Of a stretch of 64,000 nt of DNA, positions 5,884 through 20,137 are shown piece after piece; within the stretch, counting starts at the first letter, position 1, and the number at the start of each line of letters is the position of its first letter. Below the pieces are notes generated by a model. It ran no database searches. It was not told the origin of the DNA and worked only from the letters and a program-made list of their open reading frames with translations. The position numbers and the translations under genes are program-made. The stretch comes from Mytilus edulis (taxonomy: Eukaryota): contig NC_092349.1 of assembly GCF_963676685.1 (NCBI RefSeq), positions 46,748,001 to 46,812,000 of the forward strand. Reading direction: 5' to 3'.

Positions 5884-7116
5884 ATTCCTAAAAAAATATA
5901 TAAAAAGTGTAATTTTAAGGTAGTTTGATTGACGTATTTTTATATCATAGATTATACAAGAGAGTAGATTGCTACACGTACCAAATTTTTGGGCCGGACA
6001 TATGGAGGTTTTTAGTGTAAAAAAAAGTGCAAAGTATTTTATAACTATCTGTATATTGAGATGACTTTAATAATAAACTGCCAGAACCAGTCCAATCAAA
6101 TTAGATATTAGAGTGCTATAAATGATGAAAGTGATGAAATCGAATATCTTTTAATGCAGGTGATGAAATGGAATATCATCTAATTTATTTTCAAGACTTA
6201 ATTATGAAACTTGTGACTATCATCTACTGACAAAATATTCCAGTGTTTTCCTCATATCAGATATGGACTTTCGTCTTATTTACTCATTAATGAGTTTTAT
6301 GTCAAGATAGTATATTTTTTAGGACCCTCGATTCTGCGTATTACAGACGCATTTACTAACAAAAATATTATTTCTCTACGAGTTGTATCTCAGATATGGA
6401 CTAGCGCAAACTTTTATCAGTCACTCATTTGTGAATTGTAGGGTAATATTATCTTTTTTTAACGGGAGCCCTTGGTTATTCAAGACGCATCTACGAACAA
6501 AATCTCGTGAAATATGACTTATACTTCAACAGAAAGATGTACTTTAACTTTTTTACGGACAAATGAAACACTATATCCCTTCCCTAACTTCGTTTGACAA
6601 AAAATGTAAATATCGTAAAGTAAACAAATGTCAAAGTGTTCCTCTAAATAAAGGTTGAGAAATCCTAAACATAATGTTTTCATTTAATTCGTTTTTTTGG
6701 TGAAATTTTAAAATTATCAACACACAGTCATAAAAAAAGTAATGTAGCTTTGTATGATATTTAACCATGTGTTCTGCTCTAACCGACGCGAAGGATCTTC
6801 TTGAACTTACTACCAGTTATAAGAAATATTGATCATTGTTGAATGCCCAATGGTGACTTGAAGATGGAGAACAACAATAAAAACGTTCCATATTTCAGTT
6901 TTATTATCAATATTGTCGTGTGTACATTTAACCAATATTCATTCACATTTTCATTACGTATACGACAGACTAAAAATTGCTACATACTACGTCAACTAAA
7001 ATTCAGAAAGCTTCAGACAGTACAGCAAATTATTCTCTTCGTAACAACTGACAAATCATTGACAAAATATTTTTTATTTAAATTTGTTTGGATGCAGTAA
7101 AACTGCATAGTATTAA

Positions 7117-7792
7117 AGGGGCACTAGCTACGAGATATATAAAAATCTAAAGTTTGATTTTTTTTCTGTTCAATCAATAATGAAAGTGAAATAGTGAAAT
7201 AACAATTCGCTTTTTGCAGCCAAAAAGTTTCAATTTTGTCAAATTACGCTAAGAAACACTGATAATTAGTTATTCACTTGCAAGTGAATGAGTCGACCTC
7301 TTTAAATCTGTGTTCATGTGAACTTCAATTTAACCCCTAGCTAGAGATTGACAACGCATGCATTGTACGTGTACTGGTTATTTTAAGAAAAAGAATGTCA
7401 ACAATAAAAGTGAAACTACGGTAAATCATTTGATTACTAATTCGATGCACATAAAATCATTCTTATACGGTTAAAAACAATGAAAAACATCTATTTTTAA
7501 TCTATAAAATAAAATCAAACAGACTTATAAAAATCCAACTGCACGTGTTGGTTTAATCTATTCATATCTTTATTTATGTTTACATCGCTTCTATGGTAAT
7601 CTGAGGTCAAATCGATAGTTAATTAGATGGTGTATGGACTAGAATACACACGAAACAAACCTATATATTATCTACCCCATGCTCTGTAAACTGTTTATTT
7701 TAGACTTTTGATAGTTTGGATAAATGTTTTACATTGTTATAAATCAAATATGAGTCAAATCGGTGACCATGAATTTGACAGCTAGTGCCCCT
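7117..7792. mobile_element. Non-autonomous DNA transposon (MITE), Kolobok-like ends
   Basis: Perfect 13-bp TIR AGGGGCACTAGCT/AGCTAGTGCCCCT; TTAA on both sides (7113-7116, 7793-7796). Confidence 0.88.
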
Positions 7793-8241
7793 TTAACAAA
7801 CATCAAATGGATATTCGAGAGGTTTGAAAATCACTTTCAATTACTGAAGCATGTATTTATATGTTACCTTTAAAAACTCCCGATATCGTTTGAGTTTTTT
7901 CCCCTGAAGGTATCACCAGCCCAGTAGTCAGCACTTCTGTGTTGAAATGACTATTATTGATATGGTCATAACTATAAGCTGTATTTGGTCATCAATGCTC
8001 TTCAACTTCTTACATTATTATTATTTTTTTAACTTTTTTATTCGAGCGTCACTGATGAGGGTTTTTTTTTTAAACGAATTGCGCGTCTGACAAAATTTCA
8101 ATCCTAGTATCTATGATGATTTTGTTGACTTTTTTTTCGATTTTTTGCATTATACTTCCACATAATTATATCACAACTGAGGATAACTTACACAGTCTTT
8201 CATTTGATAAATGTTAAATTCGATAAGAAAAACCTCAATAT

Positions 8242-8995
8242 ATGTGTTCCAGACCGTATAAGTATTTGGATCGTACGCGTACTGTCCAGACCGTATACGT
8301 ATACTGGTACGGTCCGACCATACGCGTAGTGTTGGACCGTATGAGTATACGTGTATGGTCCAGTACGAGCTGATCATACATGTTATTGGATCATATGGGT
8401 TAAGGTTAAACAAACATTCATCACAATCTTTTTGTTTTTAGTTTAAAAACTTGTAATTATCACAATTAGATAGATAAAAGGAACAAATGACCAATTGAAT
8501 TATATATTTGTTTAATTGAATATCTGGATCCTATTTTTGTACTCTCGCCCAAGGAGAGACTTGCTACGACACGTAACGTATTATTTTTAACATTTACATG
8601 TTTGCATGCAGTTCATACATGTTCCTTTGCATTTGCATGTTTTGCTTTATATTCCAAAGCAATATTTCTCCCACATTATGTTAACTTCCGATATCTTCAG
8701 TGATCATATTTCAATTAATGTATTACTGATCGACATGCTAAGAAATTACTGGTAACAGATTGAATTGGTGGAATTTATTCAATAGTTAAAATATAATTTT
8801 TTTATTTCAATTACAGTTGAACTCTTTTATTTTAAATTTAGAGTTAAATTATGTTGATCTGTTAAATTAATTTGTATCGGATAAATTGACCAACATCTTA
8901 ATATAATTTAGACCGTACGCGTGCGGTTCGACCGTATGAGTATTTTAAAAAAAAGTACGCATACGGTCCAAATACTCATACGGTCTGGAACACAT
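8242..8995. mobile_element. MITE with about 41-bp TIRs and subterminal GACCGTATGAGTA-like repeats
   Basis: ATGTGTTCCAGACCGTATAAGTATTTGGATCGTACGCGTAC versus GTACGCATACGGTCCAAATACTCATACGGTCTGGAACACAT (3 mismatches). Confidence 0.85.
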
Positions 8996-9544
8996 GCATT
9001 ATATGTAATAAGTTATGATGTAAAATTTATTAAATCAAAAATTTTAAAAAAGTAATCATATCTCTCATTTAAAAAGAGATATAAATTATCTTGTACATGA
9101 CATACTAACCAACACTTTCCTCTTCTAGCGTGAATATTATGAATACCTGAGTGCGAAATTGTTTAAACCATAATTATATGTATTTTCTCATGAGAAAAAA
9201 ATTAGCTTTTACATATAATGATATGTTCTTATGTCACCTTTGAGCCTTGTACTTCCTATTTCACTTAATGAACTATTTTGAAATATATTAGGCCTAGGTT
9301 TTTGATATTTGCTCAATTAGTAAGGAAATATTATAAAAACATATAGAATCATACTGTTTTGGATCATCAAGAGTGTTTAGCTTATTGGAAATTACCTATT
9401 CTTTTCATAAAAAAAAAAACCTTTAAAAAAAACTACTGTTCCAAACTAATTTGAGGTCCAATAAGCACTTCCGTTTTGATTTATAAGAACTGTCATTGAT
9501 TTTGATACGGTCATACTCACAAATCAGCTGTAATATGCTCTTTA

Positions 9545-9955
9545 AAGAGGGACGAAAGATACAAGAGGGACAGTCAAACTCATAAAACGACAATAAACTG
9601 ACAACGCCATGGCTAAAAAGAAAAGGACAAACAGACTAACAATAGTTCACATAGCACAACATAGAACACTAAAGAATAAACAACACGAACCCCACCAAAA
9701 TCTAGGGGGAATCGCGGGTGCTCCGGAAGGGTAAGCAGATCTTGCTCCACATGTGGAACCCGTCGTGTTGCTTATGAGATAAAAAAAAATCCGGTAAATA
9801 GTCTAATAAAGTATGTCACATTTATGAAAGGGAAAGGGACTGTCGTTACGACGTAAGGAACATATATCAGATATCGTTTGTGAAACAGTTATTCCATAAC
9901 GGTCAACCAACTCGTGATGGCGTCCGTAAAATTTACGAAGAGATGATTTTAACTT
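9545..9955 (-). mobile_element. 3' fragment of a Penelope-like element
   Basis: 9910-9950 is the approximate reverse complement of 32280-32318, which follows an RT remnant. Boundaries approximate. Confidence 0.45.
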
Positions 9956-10781
9956 TGTACTTTACTTGGCTTTTTTTAACATTTTTAATTCGAGCGTTAC
10001 GGTGAATCTTTTGTAAACGAAACGCGTTTCTGGCGCAAATATTAAATTTCAATCTTAATATCAATGATGAGTTTATTATTAACTTTAAAATTTTCGAAAT
10101 CCCAACGCTTTCATTTTTACAAGGTAAGATTCACTGGGGTAAAGCTGATGACCGTAACTGCATTCACGGTCATCCCAAGATGTCGGATGAAAAATTAGGT
10201 CAGTATTTGTATTGTCTGTTTAAGTGTTTCTATATCATTTTCATTACAAAGCATACACTGGTACGATGTAAATGTATAAAAGAATCACACGGAAATCACA
10301 TATTACAACCGAGAAATGTGTATGAAACAGGAAATTGGAATTGAAAAAATCGCTAAGATAACCGTAAATCGTCAGTAAAATATTTTCAATTATACGACAA
10401 AAAGATGAAACTAACTTTTAATAAAGGTAATAATGATAATAATGATAATGTTTTTTTTTTATTAAGTTGCACAGATATGTTGAAACTCTACTCAGAAATT
10501 TTTCGTCCATTTCTTCATATATTTTTTAGAGGGTGGTGTATTTCTTTGACCTTTATTAAGGTGTGTATATTTCTAAACTCGTTCGATATACTCGTGTCTG
10601 TATTGTCGTGTTTTTGTTGCAATTTTCGTAATCCTAAGAAGTTTAAAACCGTTACTAAAGCAAATATTTATGTCGGAATATTTGACCGTACCTGTAGAAT
10701 CTTAATAACCAACGAGATATCACATTCTAACTATTACGGGGTGTTGTGTAAAGACTTTTTATTATAAATACGACAAAGTCG

Positions 10782-11760
10782 ATGGAGCCAAACTTAGCCG
10801 TTGAAATGGTGCAGGACCTGCAATGCAAAGGATGCACAGTTTCATGTATAATAATGGATGACGATACCACTACTCTAGCTAGACTTAAACAAAACATTAA
10901 TTCTGATATTGTTAAAAGGTCAGACAAAAACCACCAAAGAAAAAATATTGTTAGTGACTTATACCGCTTACATGAAAAACACAAAGGTAAATTGTCAACA
11001 AGTACTATAAGCTACTTGACAAAAGATTTAGATTATGCGATAGCCCAAAACCAGAATCATGCAGAACAATTAAGCCAGAATATTTATTCCATCATTCCCC
11101 ATTCTTTTGGTGATCATTCTAAATGTGACTTATCATGGTGTAACTACCATAAAGATCCAGAAAATTACAAACACAAAAGTCTTCCGTATGGCAAAGATTT
11201 AAACGGAGAGGAAATGTTTGCTGATCTATCAAAATTGTTTGATTCTTATGCAAAGAACTCACATAAATTAGCTAATTGTGGCAGCTCACAAGGAAACGAA
11301 TCCTTAAATCAAATTATCGCGTTAAAGGCACCAAAAGCTAAGCATTTTGGGAGTAGTCAATCCCTTCCTTTCCGAGTATGCGTGGGTGTTATTCAGAAAA
11401 ACGAAGGTCGTTCTTATATACCACAAGTATACGAAGCTCATAAATTGTCACCGGGAAAATTTACAGTAATGCATACGGCAAAAATAGACAAAAAGCGCAA
11501 GCATGACAAAGTGAATGCAAGTACCCGGGAGGCAAAGAGAAAAAGACTAGTCAAAAAAGGAAAATTTAACTTAAATCTAAAGGCCAAAGAAATACGAGAA
11601 GGCATCACATATGCAACCTCTATATCTGCACCAGCAAATTCGAGAGAGAAAGCTGATGATATTTCACCCATTCCTGATCCTGAACCAGAAGTGACGGAAG
11701 ATCCTCTGTCTTTGAAAGACGAAACATTTGTTTACTTTGACCTTGAAACTACAGGATTCG
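10782..11760 (+). CDS. DDE transposase exon (Mutator-like/Kolobok type; N-terminal part missing) ending in the ExoI motif
   Basis: Motifs KSMEP, IIMDDDTT, SDKNHQRK, HSFGDHSKC..WC, SSQGNESLN, a basic NLS-like stretch, then FVYFDLETTGF. Phase-1 donor G|GTAAGA at 11760/11761. Confidence 0.82.
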
Positions 11761-12493
11761 GTAAGAAATTAATTGTTTTTGTTGTTGGTTTTCTTTTATT
11801 ACATAGCCAATATAATCGTTATCTTTTTTCGGCTACAGATTATTTTCTTATTTATGAACAATTTAAACAGACAGATCTTCTTTGATTTAAATCTACACTG
11901 AGTAATTGGAAATTTATAAACAAAAAACAAAAACAACAAATAAAAAAAAACACGATCAGGCGACACCAGTATGTAAATGTTATATGTATGCCTAATACAT
12001 GTATTTATATTTCTTATTGTCATTCAAAAAGGGACAAAAGACAACTTGGAATATAATGTGTTGCGTTTCTATAGGACCTGAGTATATTATTAGAAATCTT
12101 TGTAGTATCACAGTATATAAAATGTCTTAGCGTTTTTACCAATACTTAGGAGTTTGAATAATAATATCAAATGTGTTTAACATTATGCATACATAATAAA
12201 TAGGCTAAATAATTATGAATAAAGAGAGAAATTAACTGGAATACAGAAATTCAGAGGACACTACAAGAAGAAAAAATCCCCTTCACATCCGCAATCGCTA
12301 CATATAATGTTTAACATGAAACAACAAACTTTTTTCTGCATTGGATTGTATGCGTTTCCGTTTGTGTTGCTAAGTAACATAAACGGTAATCATTGTAGTT
12401 TGTTACTGTGTGCATGTATCGTAAGATGAATGATAGGACGGCATTTTTTAAGTATTAATAACAAAGACTTATTTTGAATTGTTTCTTTTTCAG

Positions 12494-13293
12494 GTACTGA
12501 TTGTGATATCATTCAATTAGCTGCAGCATATGCCAACCAAAATTATAATCGGTATATGGTACCCAGTCAGCGTATCTCGCCATCTGCCTCTAAAGTAACT
12601 GGGTTTTCAAAAAGTGGTTTAATTTTGTATAAAAACGGGGAAATTATGCAGACAGACGAAGAAACTGAAATTTTAAAGCATTTTATTTCTTGGCTTCCGA
12701 AAAAATGCATTCTGATTGGTCACAATTCAAAAATTTTTGATTCCAGGATTCTGACTAAGGCTTTACAAAATAATAATATCATGAAAGATTTTGAATTAAA
12801 ATGCGTTGGATTTATTGACACTTTATCATTGACGAAAGAACTATTACCAGACAGAAAGACAAGTAAGCAGTCATACAAACAGGAATCACTCGTAAAAGAT
12901 ATTGTTGGAATAAGTTATGATGCACACAATGCCATTGGTGATGTGCAATCCCTGCAACAGCTGATCAACACGTTAAAAGTTTCTCCAAGAATGCTAGAAA
13001 AACACAGCTTCTCTGTTCGCTACACAGTAAACATGATCAGTAAGCTGCAGCTAACTAAATCTAGACTGGAGTCATTTAACAACATACCACCTACTTTTTG
13101 TTCAAAAACAATGCTGAACAAAATTGCCAAATCCGGTTTACGGTTAAACCATCTCATCCTTGCAGGAAATAGAGGAGGTGTTGATGGTATACGCGAATTG
13201 CTTACAGAACAGATCGACGGGAAGCCCCGAGTTACCAAAGACAAGAAGATACTGGACTCGATTTCAAAACATATTATGTCATTGCAAAGCTAG
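12494..13293 (+). CDS. Second exon: DEDDh 3'-5' exonuclease plus a PML-C-terminus-like helical domain
   Basis: Acceptor ttttttcag ends at 12493 (phase 1), giving DLETTGFG-TDCDIIQLAA. ExoII GHNSKIFD, ExoIII HNAIGD; C-terminal KIAKSGL...L...GG.DG...KPRVT. Confidence 0.85.
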
Positions 13294-13633
13294 AAAAAAA
13301 AACCATTGTCTGAACGTTTATATATTAATTTTGTTATTTTGTATTACACGTTTAGTTTCTAGACAAAACACATTACGATTTTATAATATTGGCATCAATT
13401 CACAATCATTGAACAAAACAAAAAATAGGAGAAAAGAGTAATGAAGATTTGCATCAAACTTTGATATATTGTGTAGGCTTTATCTATAAATTACGTGTAT
13501 CCCATTTGCTTTTATAATATTAAACACAGTCACCATCTAATTTCAGGATTGAAAAATAAATCAGTACTGTTGGACTCGAAGTATTTGTCTATTTTTTGTG
13601 TTGTGTTCATGTGCCATTTAAACATAATTATCA

Positions 13634-13659
13634 ATATATATATATATATATATATATAT
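13634..13659. repeat. (TA)n microsatellite
   Basis: Direct reading. Confidence 0.85.
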
Positions 13660-15565
13660 GTATTATATGACCTACATCTACGTCGTACGACGATTCATCG
13701 GCACATTGATGACTCGATTAGGTAAAAGAAATGTTGTGTTTCTCAGTACAGTTTGACTTTTTCTACAGTTTTTCTGCGGCATTGTGAATTTGTTTTCATC
13801 CTTGGTACATTCCGTTTCCCTTACTGATTGCGCAGCAGCAAATATTTCATGTATTTTCGGGTCGAAAATGTATTCAATGAATGTATATCGTCATTCTGTG
13901 AATTTCAATGATAGTTTCCGTTTACTTTGTTTAAACTTTTACAGACTCTAAACTACAAGTCCATTGTTTAAAGATTTCCTTTTTATCATTAAATCAGTGC
14001 CTTAATTGTTGTTCATTGACATAAACCCCACACTGATAGAAGAATCAAGTTATACATGACTAGGGTCTCATATACTCCGTAAACAAACGAATATCCGTAA
14101 TAACTAGTGATACTTTTTCAGACAGGATAATTATTTCATAAGCGCTATAGCGCATAATTAGTTTAAAAACACATTATAATCAAAGAGACGCCTTGAGGTA
14201 GCGGTCGTTGTCTTTATTTGACAAGATTTTTATGTTGGTGACTATTCTGCTGATGGAGACTTGACGTTGCGTAATCCTCTTCGGCGACGTCATGCAATTT
14301 CTATCTTTTCCCGTCAGCAATGCCCTTTCAACGGCTGATATATAAAAAAGGAGTCCGGTAACCATAGGAAAATTATATATCAATAGAAAGGAAAAATCTA
14401 TCATAAAAACATTTAATTTTTATAGAAAAATCGTAGAAATGGTTTTAACTGCAGATTAAAATAAGCTGGAAATTTCATACTTTTTGCGTAAATTTGACGT
14501 TATGTCTATGTACTTCATGGTGTTTTTCTAACAATTTCAAATGACTGTAACTTTGAAAGTAGATCGGTTACCCACTCAAAATTTTCAATTTTTCTGTTTA
14601 TTTTTAAAAGTTCTACGTGAATACAATTTCTTAAAAAATTCGGTGGACAAGCCATTTACGTACCTGTTACCTTAAGTAAACTTATTAAAAGTTTAATAAT
14701 GTAATACTGTTTTAAATAAAGGCAACAGTAGTATACCACTTTTCAAAAGTTATAAATTCATTGAGCGATAACAAATCCGTATAACAAACTTAAACCGAGG
14801 GAAACACATCATTTATAAGAGGAAAACAACGAAACAATAGAAACACAGGAATGCAACTAAAACAAGTTAGATTATTGAATATTGTCTCCTTCGGTATATC
14901 CATTGATTTGTATTGTGGTAATTTAAAACATTACTAAATAAGTGTGGCTGTAAGCACGTTTCAGTTATGAATATTTTTGATTTATGAACTGTCAATACTT
15001 ACATGTTGGCAACTGCACGAGGGCATGCTTTTTCTCAGATTTTGAAATCAAGTACAAACTACATTAACGATATTTTGCAGAATTTTAACTGACTTTTTGG
15101 AGAAAATACTCATACATATAATTTGATTGCTTTTATTCTTGTATATATGATGAATTAAAATCAAATACAAATCATAATAGATGTCCTCCTTCCTTGTGTT
15201 TAATCTTATCGCTGTTGTCTATACACATTGCCACAAGGATGATATGGATCAAACGAATAAGACCATCCCGAAATGGAGATTAACATCGGCCTACATCGAT
15301 TCATCACTCGGGTTAGTAAAGTTTACCGTTTGAAACAACCCAAATTATAATGGAATCAACTCCGAGAAGAAAATGGTTATTTGGACTGGTTTCATAGCTA
15401 GCTAAACCTCTCACTTGTATGACAGTGGCATACGTTCCATTATATTAAAAATTATGTGTGAACAAAGCAAACAGAAACCATGGGTAAAAAGGTAAAAAAT
15501 AAGGGTACATCAGTCAATATTGTGTAACAATTTATCAAAACAAATTATAAAAAAATGATATCATA

Positions 15566-16853: not shown

Positions 16854-17232
16854 GTAAGAAAACAATCGTAGACAAATTATTATGTCTTACTTGTTACATT
16901 TAAAAATGTAGATATAAAAATGTTATTAGTATTGTAGTTAAAGGAAGGTTTCAAATGTTCAGGTGCCTGTTCTAAGTTAGGAATCTCTTGATCGAGAGGT
17001 TATCACATCATAATAAATTTTTATTATTATAAGAATGTGAATGTAATGTTTCTATAGGTTTTTTCCACAACTTTTATTGTCGATAAATGTTTGTTAAAAA
17101 AGCAAAATTTAATACCGACATGTATGAAAATGTGCAGAAATATAGGTATATTTATTTTTAAGTTGATTATTTATACTGATGCAAACTGAGGAATTACTAT
17201 TATATTTTGATGTTTTAACTATTACATTGTAG

Positions 17233-17718
17233 GAAACCTTCTTGATCAAGTGTGGATAAAAACAAAGAACAGTGGTTTCGTCAATGCTTCTACACCAAAT
17301 GTGGATTACATCAGTCTCTCGTTCTTTCAGCTATACCCTGCTAACAACCATCATATGAAATTCTCCGTTAAAGCATGTAGTAATGCCTTTATCTTACTTT
17401 CAAGTGATATGTACTTACTTTATTCCTTCTTCGATTATAGAATAGTTATCGGGGCTGGTGATAATTCAAAAATAAATGTCCGTCGAAATTTTGATCTAAT
17501 TATTAGTAGTTTTGACATAAGTACACCTGGTATACTCAATTGCACAGAGCACAGATCGTTTGAACTCAATTGGGCAATTCCCGGACGAATAACTCTAATG
17601 TCCGGTACCAAGATGGTTATGAATTATATGGATCCATCTTCTACTCCTATCTCTATAAAAGACGTAGGGATCACGACTGGGTTGGGATCTGTAGGTCTGT
17701 GGAAAGTGGAACATACTT
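17233..17718 (+). CDS. Exon 2: farnesoic acid O-methyltransferase-like (Methyltransf_FA) domain
   Basis: Acceptor ttgtag ends at 17232; donor T|GTAAG at 17718/17719. Motifs FSVKACSNAFILLS, YRIVIGAGDNSK, TPGILNCTEHRSFELNW, VGITTGLGSVGLW. Confidence 0.85.
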
Positions 17719-19529
17719 GTAAGTTATATAGTTTTTTGTTTTAAGATCAAAAGCACACAAAATACGTGTTAGCTGACTCTGCAGTATTATTTGTGCTCAT
17801 TGTTTAAGGTCATACGGCGCACGATTGTTGTAAGTTTTCCTGTTATTCGGTCTTATGTGAAGAGTTGTCTCCGTGGTAATCATACTGCATCTTCTTGTTT
17901 TTATATTTGATTGAATGATGCAACTGTTTTGAAAAAGTTCAAATGTCAGGTTTTTTCTTCTCTAGAAACAAACGAAATGCTAATTCTTTTTAGAGAATAT
18001 TGTAAAGTATGCTATTAATTTGGTATTTTAATTAACTATGCAGGATATTTTACAAATTTATTATTAGTTTACTAGTTATGAATATAAAATGTACATAAGA
18101 GAAATGTGTAATTATTAATATACTAGCACAACCATGAACTAAAATTTCGTGTTCATTTCCGAATCAATTTATTGAGAAAATTTGCTAAATTTAATTATTG
18201 AACTTCTTTAGCATGTTTAGAGCCTGCTCATGTTTTTTGAAGTGAGAAACACATTTTCTTTAAACGAAAAAAACAAACAAAACATGTATGTATCAAGAGA
18301 TAATTGCGGAAAAAGCTATTTTCCCTTCCTATATTGATTACAAATCATGGAAATGGCAACACATATCAAACATCCCAACACTTAAATTCTATAAGAAAAA
18401 TTGAAATCTTAATAATATTATTTTTATTGTTTGAGTTGTGCATCATACAATATAATGGTCAACTGCTTGATTCTCCAACGATCCCAGTTTTGCAGCGATA
18501 AGCTGAGCCAGCTCAAAACTGGAGGATCACGTGCTCGAATCTTACAATCTGATGGTGACACAATTATTTCTAATACTATATGAAACTTAACTTTAAATTT
18601 CCATAAATATGTTTTTTTCTTCAAAGCTATAGTTTTCTTTGAAAGGCTGAATTGTTTTTACTGTATACATGTGACTTGTAATTCTATCATTCTAATGAAT
18701 ATATTGATTTAGACAGAAACTCTTGTCTGTTATAATGTTTGGACAAAAACTTCTGAAATTTGATATTTAGAATACTAGTGTTATGAGCATACACATGTCG
18801 AGGTACATAAATAAAGGCAACAGTAGTATACCAATGTTCAAACTCATAAATCCATGGACAAAAATCAAAATCGGGGTAACAAACTAAAACTGAGGGAAAC
18901 GCATTAAATATAAGAGGAGAACAACGACACAACACTACAATGTAACACACACAGAAACGAACCAAGCAACAGACACAATCCCACGAGAATAACAAATATA
19001 ACATCAAAACCAAATACATAACACGTACTTTCTGTTCCTTACCCATTTGAAAACTAGCCTTTTAATAACAAACCTAGACCATTACTTTTTTCACTACAAA
19101 ACTGTTATCGAAACAATATGTTTATACCTAGTACACGACTTTTTTTTCACATTTTGCGGCACTTTTTCCAACAAGGCATTTGTATAATTCGGTTCGAGTT
19201 CTCTATATAATTGAATTTGGATAGTGTCTTTTCAATAAGTTGAGGTATAAAATACCTAAAAGGACAGGAGTTAATCCTTATTTTGAAAATTTACACAAAC
19301 AGATTTAAACAAACTGGAGCTTGGGTTAAAACTGAAGTCACAAACTGAGAATTACAAGTTTAAGATTGAGATTTTATATTTTATTAAGGTTTTTACAAAC
19401 GTTTACCCTGATATTTTATGCCGGAAAAAACATCAATGTATAAATCCAATATATATACCAATATTTAAAGAACAAACATTTGAAAACTCAAGATAAGCTA
19501 AAAGCTTAAAAAAGCAGATAAAGCTGGCA

Positions 19530-19795
19530 TGAAAATACGGATTTTTTTTGTGTTATTAAAATTTACTGTTACAAAATGATAGAAATTATTATAAATTAAG
19601 GAATGTATCTCCCTCATGCAAAGCTCTGATTCCTTACACGGATTTGGCTATACTTTTTGGACCTTTTGGATTATAGCTCTGCATCTTTTATGTAAGCTTT
19701 GGATTTCAAATATTTTGGCCACGAGCATCACTGAAGAGACATGTATTGTCGAAATGCGCATCTGGTGCAAGAAAATTGATACCGTTAATTTTATT
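19530..19795 (+). mobile_element. Dispersed retrozyme-like monomer in intron 2
   Basis: Colinear similarity to the 350-bp array unit (CTCCCTCA.GCAAAG, ATTTGGCTA, GGATTTCAAAT) ending in a hammerhead. Confidence 0.75.
19725..19768 (+). ncRNA. Type I hammerhead ribozyme, intact core
   Basis: Stem I GCATCA/TGGTGC; CTGAAGA; stem II GACA/TGTC; GAAA; palindromic stem III ATGCGCAT; predicted cleavage after C19762. Confidence 0.85.
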
Positions 19796-19823
19796 ACTAA
19801 GATAGTCAACCTGTCTTTTTCAG

Positions 19824-20137
19824 CTAGGTTTACTGGCTTTTACTGTGGTGAATCAGGAGCGTATGGTAATATGACTTTATTATCTACCTCAAAGAAACAC
19901 AGCAGGATTGACTGTGTATCTGTATGTTCAGTTAGAGATGACTGTCTTGGAGTCAATTTCAATCGCAAAACAGAAGAATGTCAGATGATTGCTGGAGGTC
20001 AACAGGTTATCAAGATTGTTGTTCAAAAATCACCATGGTATTTGTACACAAAATGCTTACAAGATAAAACGATGTGCGTATCATGTATTGTTTGGGATTC
20101 TAGACCACCCGATAATACAGGTATCTTGATTACTTAG
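19824..20137 (+). CDS. Exon 3: Cys-rich PAN/apple-like domain (joined protein 282 aa)
   Basis: Acceptor ctttttcag ends at 19823, phase 1. Pattern CVSVCSVRDDCLGVNFN...ECQM. Exon lengths 49+486+314 = 849 nt, in frame. Confidence 0.8.

Follow-up and report, generated by a model that had tools for sequence, protein, structure and literature searches.

The 64,000-nucleotide stretch of Mytilus edulis DNA analysed here (the window; contig NC_092349.1) very probably carries a young, 5'-truncated copy of the cut-and-paste transposon KolobokD, which has kept its right end, the adjoining TTAA and a spliceable reading frame and has lost its left end and the first catalytic Asp of its transposase. As judged from contigs, tblastn and terminal sequences, the surviving 3' part is 3,898 bp long (10774..14671, + strand), with its 5' break at 10773/10774. 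Kojima and Bao described KolobokD, a lineage within the Kolobok superfamily, in 2022 (Mob DNA; PMC9587614), and the window locus is a further copy of that lineage and already an automatic gene model.

A phase-1 intron joins two frames into one protein

The coding sequence lies in two open frames: one starts with an ATG at 10782 and reaches 11760, where a GT donor follows, and the other runs from behind an AG acceptor at 12493 as far as the stop at 13293. The donor reads G/GTAAGA after 11760, and the acceptor at 12493/12494 is a pyrimidine tract followed by TTTTCAG/GT. Removing the intervening 733 bp (11761..12493, +) in phase 1 joins 10782-13293 into 592 aa plus a stop; this GT-AG intron, read from transcript contigs and the sequence, splits codon 7 after the first Asp of the exonuclease. 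A first-pass annotation, made by a model from the letters of the DNA, had placed a phase-1 intron just after the ExoI motif, had proposed a single spliced protein with transposase motifs and all five DEDDh residues, and had asked whether any transcript joins both exons. The 11759/12493 joint (733 skipped, GT..AG) is present in contigs of all four probable RNA runs, from four studies, with the run types guessed, and the joined 592-aa frame contains the expected motifs and residues. Depth in the intron-centre bin (12001-12281) was 0 in each of the four probable RNA runs. Two runs of unrecorded kind, taken as DNA, covered the intron and did not list the joint; X21 and X24, both raw RNA and thinly covered (6 and 19 aligned reads), listed none. 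The public gene model P0258 (592 aa) matches the spliced translation exactly. This splice evidence concerns the element family and says nothing on transcription of the window copy, since the sampled transcripts run into the part that is missing from the window and therefore derive from fuller copies in other animals.

The 592-aa frame combines half a transposase with an exonuclease that has all five DEDDh residues

Exon A (10782..11760, +), counted from the first in-frame ATG and defined by PF20700 and alignment, encodes the C-terminal half of the transposase, a basic helix, a linker and the ExoI motif. It matched PF20700 with E 3.8e-21 over profile positions 224-357 of 357, the last 134. The fusion of a DDE transposase to an exonuclease, as first proposed, is thus borne out by the joined frame and by Pfam, but the transposase is not whole, PF20700 being represented by positions 224-357 only. 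A DDD motif (10857..10865, +; aa 26-28) would be the site of the second catalytic D, judging from alignment and from the Kolobok layout in the accessible text of PMC9587614; D306 and D308 of the full-length relative P0001 are invariant across 26 aligned rows. The sequence and alignment also contain DKNH (10923..10934, +; aa 48), an instance of the DxxH signature given in that paper. A His/Cys cluster (11100..11141, +) corresponds by alignment to the Kolobok zinc finger that the same source puts after the second D and before the final E, with H387, H392, C395, W399 and C400 of P0001 invariant in the aligned rows. The likely catalytic E (11298..11300, +; SQGNES, aa 169) aligns with the invariant E453 of P0001. 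Near the end of the exon, the sequence DLET (aa 320) contains the ExoI motif D-L-E (11739..11747, +), which supplies the first two DEDDh residues.

Exon B (12494..13293, +) encodes the remainder of the DEDDh exonuclease and a PML_C domain, up to the stop, according to Pfam and PDB sequence matches. Its catalytic residues, read from the sequence, are D 12739-12741, H 12925-12927 and D 12940-12942 (all +), and HNSKIFD and HNAIGD stand at aa 403 and aa 471 of the joined frame. Pfam matches were to PF22123 (E 3.2e-8), PF00929 (E 1.5e-5) and PF25244 (PML_C; E 6.5e-15). The last of these covers residues 203-262 of exon B and scores 55.5 bits against a cut-off of 27.1, confirming a likeness to the PML C-terminus that had been recognised by eye. 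The PML_C domain (13102..13281, +; PF25244) is helical in the predicted model and probably corresponds to the SAM-like subdomain within PML's PXL, as characterised in the accessible part of PMC13659232.

Termini, target site and protein features match those of KolobokD

Sequence 3' of the stop matched many places in the genome. Comparison with related loci and a 24-mer count placed the right terminal inverted repeat, which ends in CC, at 14653..14671 (+); the same comparison placed the right-side TTAA target site at 14672..14675 (+), its left partner being lost. Both ends were present in 10 of 21 fetched related loci, with TTAA on both sides in nine of the ten. These two-ended copies read TTAA and then GGTGAGAGG at the left and CCTGTTACC and then TTAA at the right, with the ends 2.8-5.1 kb apart and broken transposase-start pieces retained ~100 bp from the left end. 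Their termini are GG..CC, and 17 of 19 bases agree between left and right end. Exact right ends (24-mer including TTAA) occur 57 times in the genome and exact left ends 49 times (reversed control 0 for the right ends, control 0 for the left). Over the last 430 bp, identity between the short derivatives and the window is only ~83%, which puts the derivatives in a sister subfamily. In the same genome, 144 matches to exon B were counted, and the assembly holds only one near-identical copy of the element. Decayed or internally deleted relatives in the 79-88% identity range lie at G000:C3:44734421-44736376 (L035), G000:C8:62216537-62217798 (L093) and G000:C11:25678193-25679220 (L034).

KolobokD is characterised by GG..CC ends, TTAA, DxxH, a zinc finger and a DEDDh exonuclease of DnaQ type that resembles Exu and TREX (PMC9587614). 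The window element shares with it a DDD/E transposase and a mollusc host. Its right end, ..CC at 14671, together with the related copies, shows the 5'-RR...YY-3' termini with inverted repeats of Kolobok, and the TTAA at 14672-14675 agrees with the duplication seen around the two-ended copies. DKNH and the invariant H387, H392, C395 and C400 correspond to the C/DxxH and zinc finger of the superfamily, and the exonuclease has its five residues. We therefore assign the window element to KolobokD on its features, as set against the published description and not against the published tree. Unlike a whole KolobokD, the window copy lacks a left end and 277 N-terminal residues. KolobokP has long terminal direct repeats and a His-Me finger nuclease, whereas the accessory domain in the window is DEDDh. 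Filing under MuDR/Mutator, from the Pfam name, was ruled out: the ends and TTAA are those of Kolobok. The earlier idea of a donor-type element thus survives as a spliced transposase-DEDDh fusion in a mollusc DNA transposon, but the type already had a name (PMC9587614). The accessible text of that paper does not mention PML, its passages on KolobokD contain neither a PML_C tail nor the intron, and no rows labelled KolobokD, DEDD or DnaQ were found in the part of its supplements that was available.

P0001 (872 aa) is identical to the window frame at 576 of 592 residues (97%). Another relative, P0261, is identical at 587 of 592 and retains the first Asp. All close relatives are from Mytilus, with 89-98% identity across several species. 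The search for full-length copies that had been suggested found them in Mytilus trossulus, where four loci encode 872-aa copies identical at 870-872 of 872 positions. Because of these near-identical copies we regard the element as a mobile family and not as a single host gene; they also mark recent activity of the family. PF20700 and PF25244 occur together in 20 of 28 longer relatives, from molluscs, a sponge and an ant, and PF20700 occurs in 23 of a hand-chosen set of 36 long exon-B matches. In three relatives from the same genome, a single frame of 667-693 aa encodes the fusion with no intron.

The exonuclease resembles Plex9.1 and may trim transposition ends

We compared a predicted structure of P0001 (pLDDT 81.6) with known folds; the matches concern the exonuclease part. 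The closest was Plex9.1 (Z 27.5, rmsd 1.4, 183 aligned; Foldseek E 8.6e-15), followed by Exuperantia (Z 25.5) and TREX2/1 (Z 22.4 and below, 20-22). Likewise, PDB sequence matches of exon B to Plex9.1-type chains had E values from 4e-24 to 1e-19 (9mrc, E 1e-19), against 5e-7 for TREX1. Profile and fold are therefore both nearer to Plex9/PML-C than to TREX, and the structural comparison that had been proposed as a check gave Plex9.1 as the best Foldseek match alongside the PF25244 match to the PML C-terminus. Identity to the exonuclease is 36% for Plex9.1 and ~20% for Exuperantia and TREX. Exuperantia shares the DEDD fold and the arrangement of EXO and SAM-like parts, but is inactive. TREX1 and TREX2 share the DEDD fold but have no SAM-like part according to the accessible text of PMC13659232. 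Since the five catalytic residues are present and the model fits Plex9.1 best, the attached domain is likely to be an active Mg/Mn-dependent 3'-5' DNA exonuclease of the Plex9.1 kind.

In the Kolobok superfamily, a DDE core cuts at the element's ends and carries out insertion at TTAA. A copy that is whole, as in related mussels, would yield one 872-aa protein that combines transposase and exonuclease. By analogy with the family, the whole transposase would bind the 19-bp ends, excise the element and insert it at TTAA, and the family's proteins would have moved ~3-kb non-coding derivatives. From its structure, the helical tail may aid nucleic-acid binding. The tethered exonuclease would then trim 3' ends during transposition, at the excision gap or at the excised ends. 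Kojima and Bao proposed trimming of DNA intermediates as the role of the KolobokD exonuclease (PMC9587614), and we give such trimming of 3' DNA ends about an even chance.

A competing function is that the exonuclease destroys the cDNA of competing retroelements, as the first-pass annotation had also suggested, or other loose DNA, or hides the element's own by-products from DNA sensing, as TREX1 and Plex9 do, and does not act on transposition ends. It draws on the closest solved relative, Plex9.1, an enzyme that clears micronuclei and, given Mg or Mn, breaks down ss- and dsDNA, and on the LINE-1 restriction reported in the abstract of the same paper (PMC10123124). We consider it unlikely, roughly half as probable as trimming: most long relatives have domain and transposase fused, which suggests that the domain acts on the DNA ends of its own transposase, and in most lineages of Kolobok the accessory nuclease is a different one or is absent (PMC9587614). 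Because the exonuclease is tethered to the transposase, we favour action on the 3' ends of transposition. With its four near-identical 872-aa copies in M. trossulus, this recently active family offers a system in which to assay the role of the fused exonuclease.

The window copy has lost its 5' part

The break at 10774 is clean, contains no N, and falls within a codon of a coding exon and not at a splice site. Each of the four listed probable-RNA contigs that reach 10774 continues for 418-634 more 5' letters that are absent from window positions 6100-14500, and upstream of 10774 the X20 contig is the upstream coding sequence of P0001. In tblastn with P0001 (872 aa), the match in the window starts at residue 277 (frame ~278). 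The N-terminal part of P0001 was not found by tblastn upstream in the window or in the preceding 30 kb, and the best match to the missing 277 aa in the assembly, among the best 140 of 970 candidates, was an 85% fragment. No left end was found within 4 mismatches in the window and the 30 kb upstream. The missing part, about 277-280 residues, includes the first catalytic D (FDGAW motif, residue 215 of P0001) and a CCHC finger that follows this D in P0001 (CRKC..HDC). A complete DDE triad and both ends are thus absent from the window copy, and what had been called intact is so for the exonuclease, with its five DEDDh residues, but not for the copy as a whole. Lacking the catalytic Asp and one end, the window copy likely neither catalyses transposition nor is moved, and is probably unable to transpose alone.

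It could instead be that the animal has a whole element, the break at 10774 having arisen in assembly or the fuller copy lying on the other haplotype. In X15 one contig starts right at 10774, as a branch in the graph would produce, and has a depth of 7.3 against 4.3 upstream; the 5' side is intact in X20 and in all RNA-type contigs; and the 5' flank is covered (to 10720) by X15 only, a possible source sample, with no listed contig bridging 10774. On the other hand, X15 reproduces the window's own flank at 10400-10720 without differences and covers the bin 10721-10827, the break is clean and free of N, and a branch is compatible with both forms being real. We therefore regard an assembly or haplotype effect as improbable and retain a truncated copy as our reading. 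That the truncation instead left a domesticated host gene, a stand-alone Plex9-like exonuclease translated from the ATG at 10782 and kept by selection, is very improbable: the unbroken 592-aa frame with its in-frame ATG and intact splice sites, the public gene model, the single near-identical copy in the assembly and the 89-98% relatives in several Mytilus species might suggest it, but all four listed RNA-type contigs that reach 10774 enter the 5' sequence of the full element and not the window flank, the relatives are full-length copies at multiple loci, the right end and TTAA are intact, and the window copy and P0261, in which the first Asp is present, are separated by only 5 differences in 592 residues, so that there was little time for selection and the frame needs none to be unbroken.

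The exonuclease probably shares an intron position with PML

The likeness of the exonuclease part to PML and Plex9 is real. A paddlefish 'protein PML-like' is 34% identical over 242 aa that include PML_C. A profile match with E 1.5e-63 was set aside, as the alignment behind it (A3) includes rows that are possibly vertebrate. The fish proteins Plex9.1 and Plex9.2 (also TREX4, 'protein PML-like') and the C-terminal DEDDh of gar PML belong to the same exonuclease subfamily (PMC10123124, accessible text), but Plex9 genes, unlike KolobokD, are host genes that carry no transposase and no transposon ends. PML_C was not matched in P0198, the teleost protein scanned. The PXL of human PML-I resembles the window protein in its layout, EXO-like followed by a helical SAM-like part, and differs in being catalytically dead and fused to a RING-B-box-coiled coil (PMC13659232, PMC11602975). 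No human PML chain stood among the PDB and fold matches, which is no evidence against the likeness. A protein search for full-length PML returned instead a ray CABIN1-like fusion, a tandem fish protein, Kolobok proteins and bacterial exonucleases.

The position of the intron adds to this likeness. Human PML exon 8a encodes residues 571-620 and exon 9 begins at 621 (PMC11602975), and D614 is the sole DEDD residue that human PML has kept (PMC13659232). As D614 stands where the domain begins, we take it to be the first Asp. So aligned, the exon 8a/9 boundary at 620/621 lies seven residues past it, the same Asp+7 position as the window intron. The fish-type pair P0215 (spliced) and P0175 (other start residues) diverges at the same Asp+7 codon, and Plex9 probably carries this intron too. 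Fish Plex9 DNA, sought in metagenome contigs in order to read the intron phase, gave no match. Among 18 loci of the M. edulis genome, an acceptor lies at Asp+7 in the window and in eight loci that belong to three further families, six are intron-free and three had no motif match. KolobokD families of this genome differ in whether the Asp+7 intron is present (L036, L037, L038, L041, L107 and L108 versus L042-L049). Shared with human PML and probably with fish Plex9, the intron is a concrete marker for the origin of the PML-I exonuclease domain.

Transposon and vertebrate exonucleases may share a transposon origin

To place the vertebrate domains, we built trees, one of them a quick tree, from 191 of 241 domain matches and then from two sets picked by hand (54 and 46 rows); distant bacterial exonucleases served as the root, and true PML, TREX1/2 and Exu were absent from the rows. 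Vertebrate rows formed their own clade (SH-aLRT 96 and 98), with P0001 outside it. In the free trees this clade was nested among transposase-fused rows, with no strongly supported branch forcing the arrangement. Keeping the transposon rows in one group raised the log-likelihood by 5.7 and 20.1 units (p-AU 0.636 and 0.846), so that a sister relation is not rejected. We had read the nesting as support for a transposon donor and dropped that reading after the AU tests.

Either direction would account for the shared intron: an intron-bearing element may have been domesticated, or Kolobok may have captured an old gene of a host, for which Exuperantia is a precedent in layout. PML is first seen in jawed vertebrates (PMC10123124), whereas the fusion is widespread among invertebrates; this distribution speaks for domestication. 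The C-terminus that defines isoform PML-I, along with the Plex9 exonucleases, could, at somewhat less than even probability, be a domesticated KolobokD exonuclease: an intron-bearing KolobokD would have inserted itself behind a TRIM gene of an early jawed vertebrate, and the exon 8a/9 junction, whose splicing separates PML-I from PML-IV, would be the transposon's own intron. If this is true, a domain of a tumour suppressor, which in its fish form restricts LINE-1, comes from a DNA transposon. The first-pass annotation had given this origin as established; we found no such statement in the literature searched, which mostly did not extend to subscription papers and Repbase reports, and treat it as a hypothesis and not as background. 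The accessible main text of the Plex9 paper (PMC10123124) has no 'transposase', 'transposon' or 'Kolobok', and that of the PXL paper no 'transpos'.

Neighbouring features and other exonuclease fusions

Several host proteins carry related exonuclease domains. The CABIN1-like protein P0221 of the ray Narcine bancroftii ends in an intact-looking DEDDh and PML_C (~1577-1823) and groups with the vertebrate Plex9 clade; its cluster comprises 10 isoform records. P0221 is either another fusion in a host or the product of gene models run together. P0220, P0078 and P0101 (Merluccius, Cottoperca and Muraenolepis) are tandem arrays of Plex9-type exonucleases annotated as single proteins. Three proteins of the cricket Anabrus simplex (P0066, P0067 and P0074) have 2-4 tandem exonuclease domains with altered catalytic residues and no transposase, and are possibly an independent domestication.

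Within the window, an intronless Toll-like receptor frame with LRRs and a TIR domain (PF01582, E 1.7e-17) lies ~5 kb upstream of the element (3775-~5885, - strand). A dispersed repeat of ~260 bp at 10131-10389, outside the transposon coding region, is 90-97% identical at at least 36 other places among the best 40 of 3039 candidates. High-copy repeats at 9544-9955 and 7113-7796 have very high depth in RNA-type contigs, and the latter has short inverted sequences at both limits, as in a MITE. Downstream, open frames at 17211-17744 and 19595-20137 (both +) resemble host-gene exons, and the second has what we take to be a PAN/apple-like Cys pattern.
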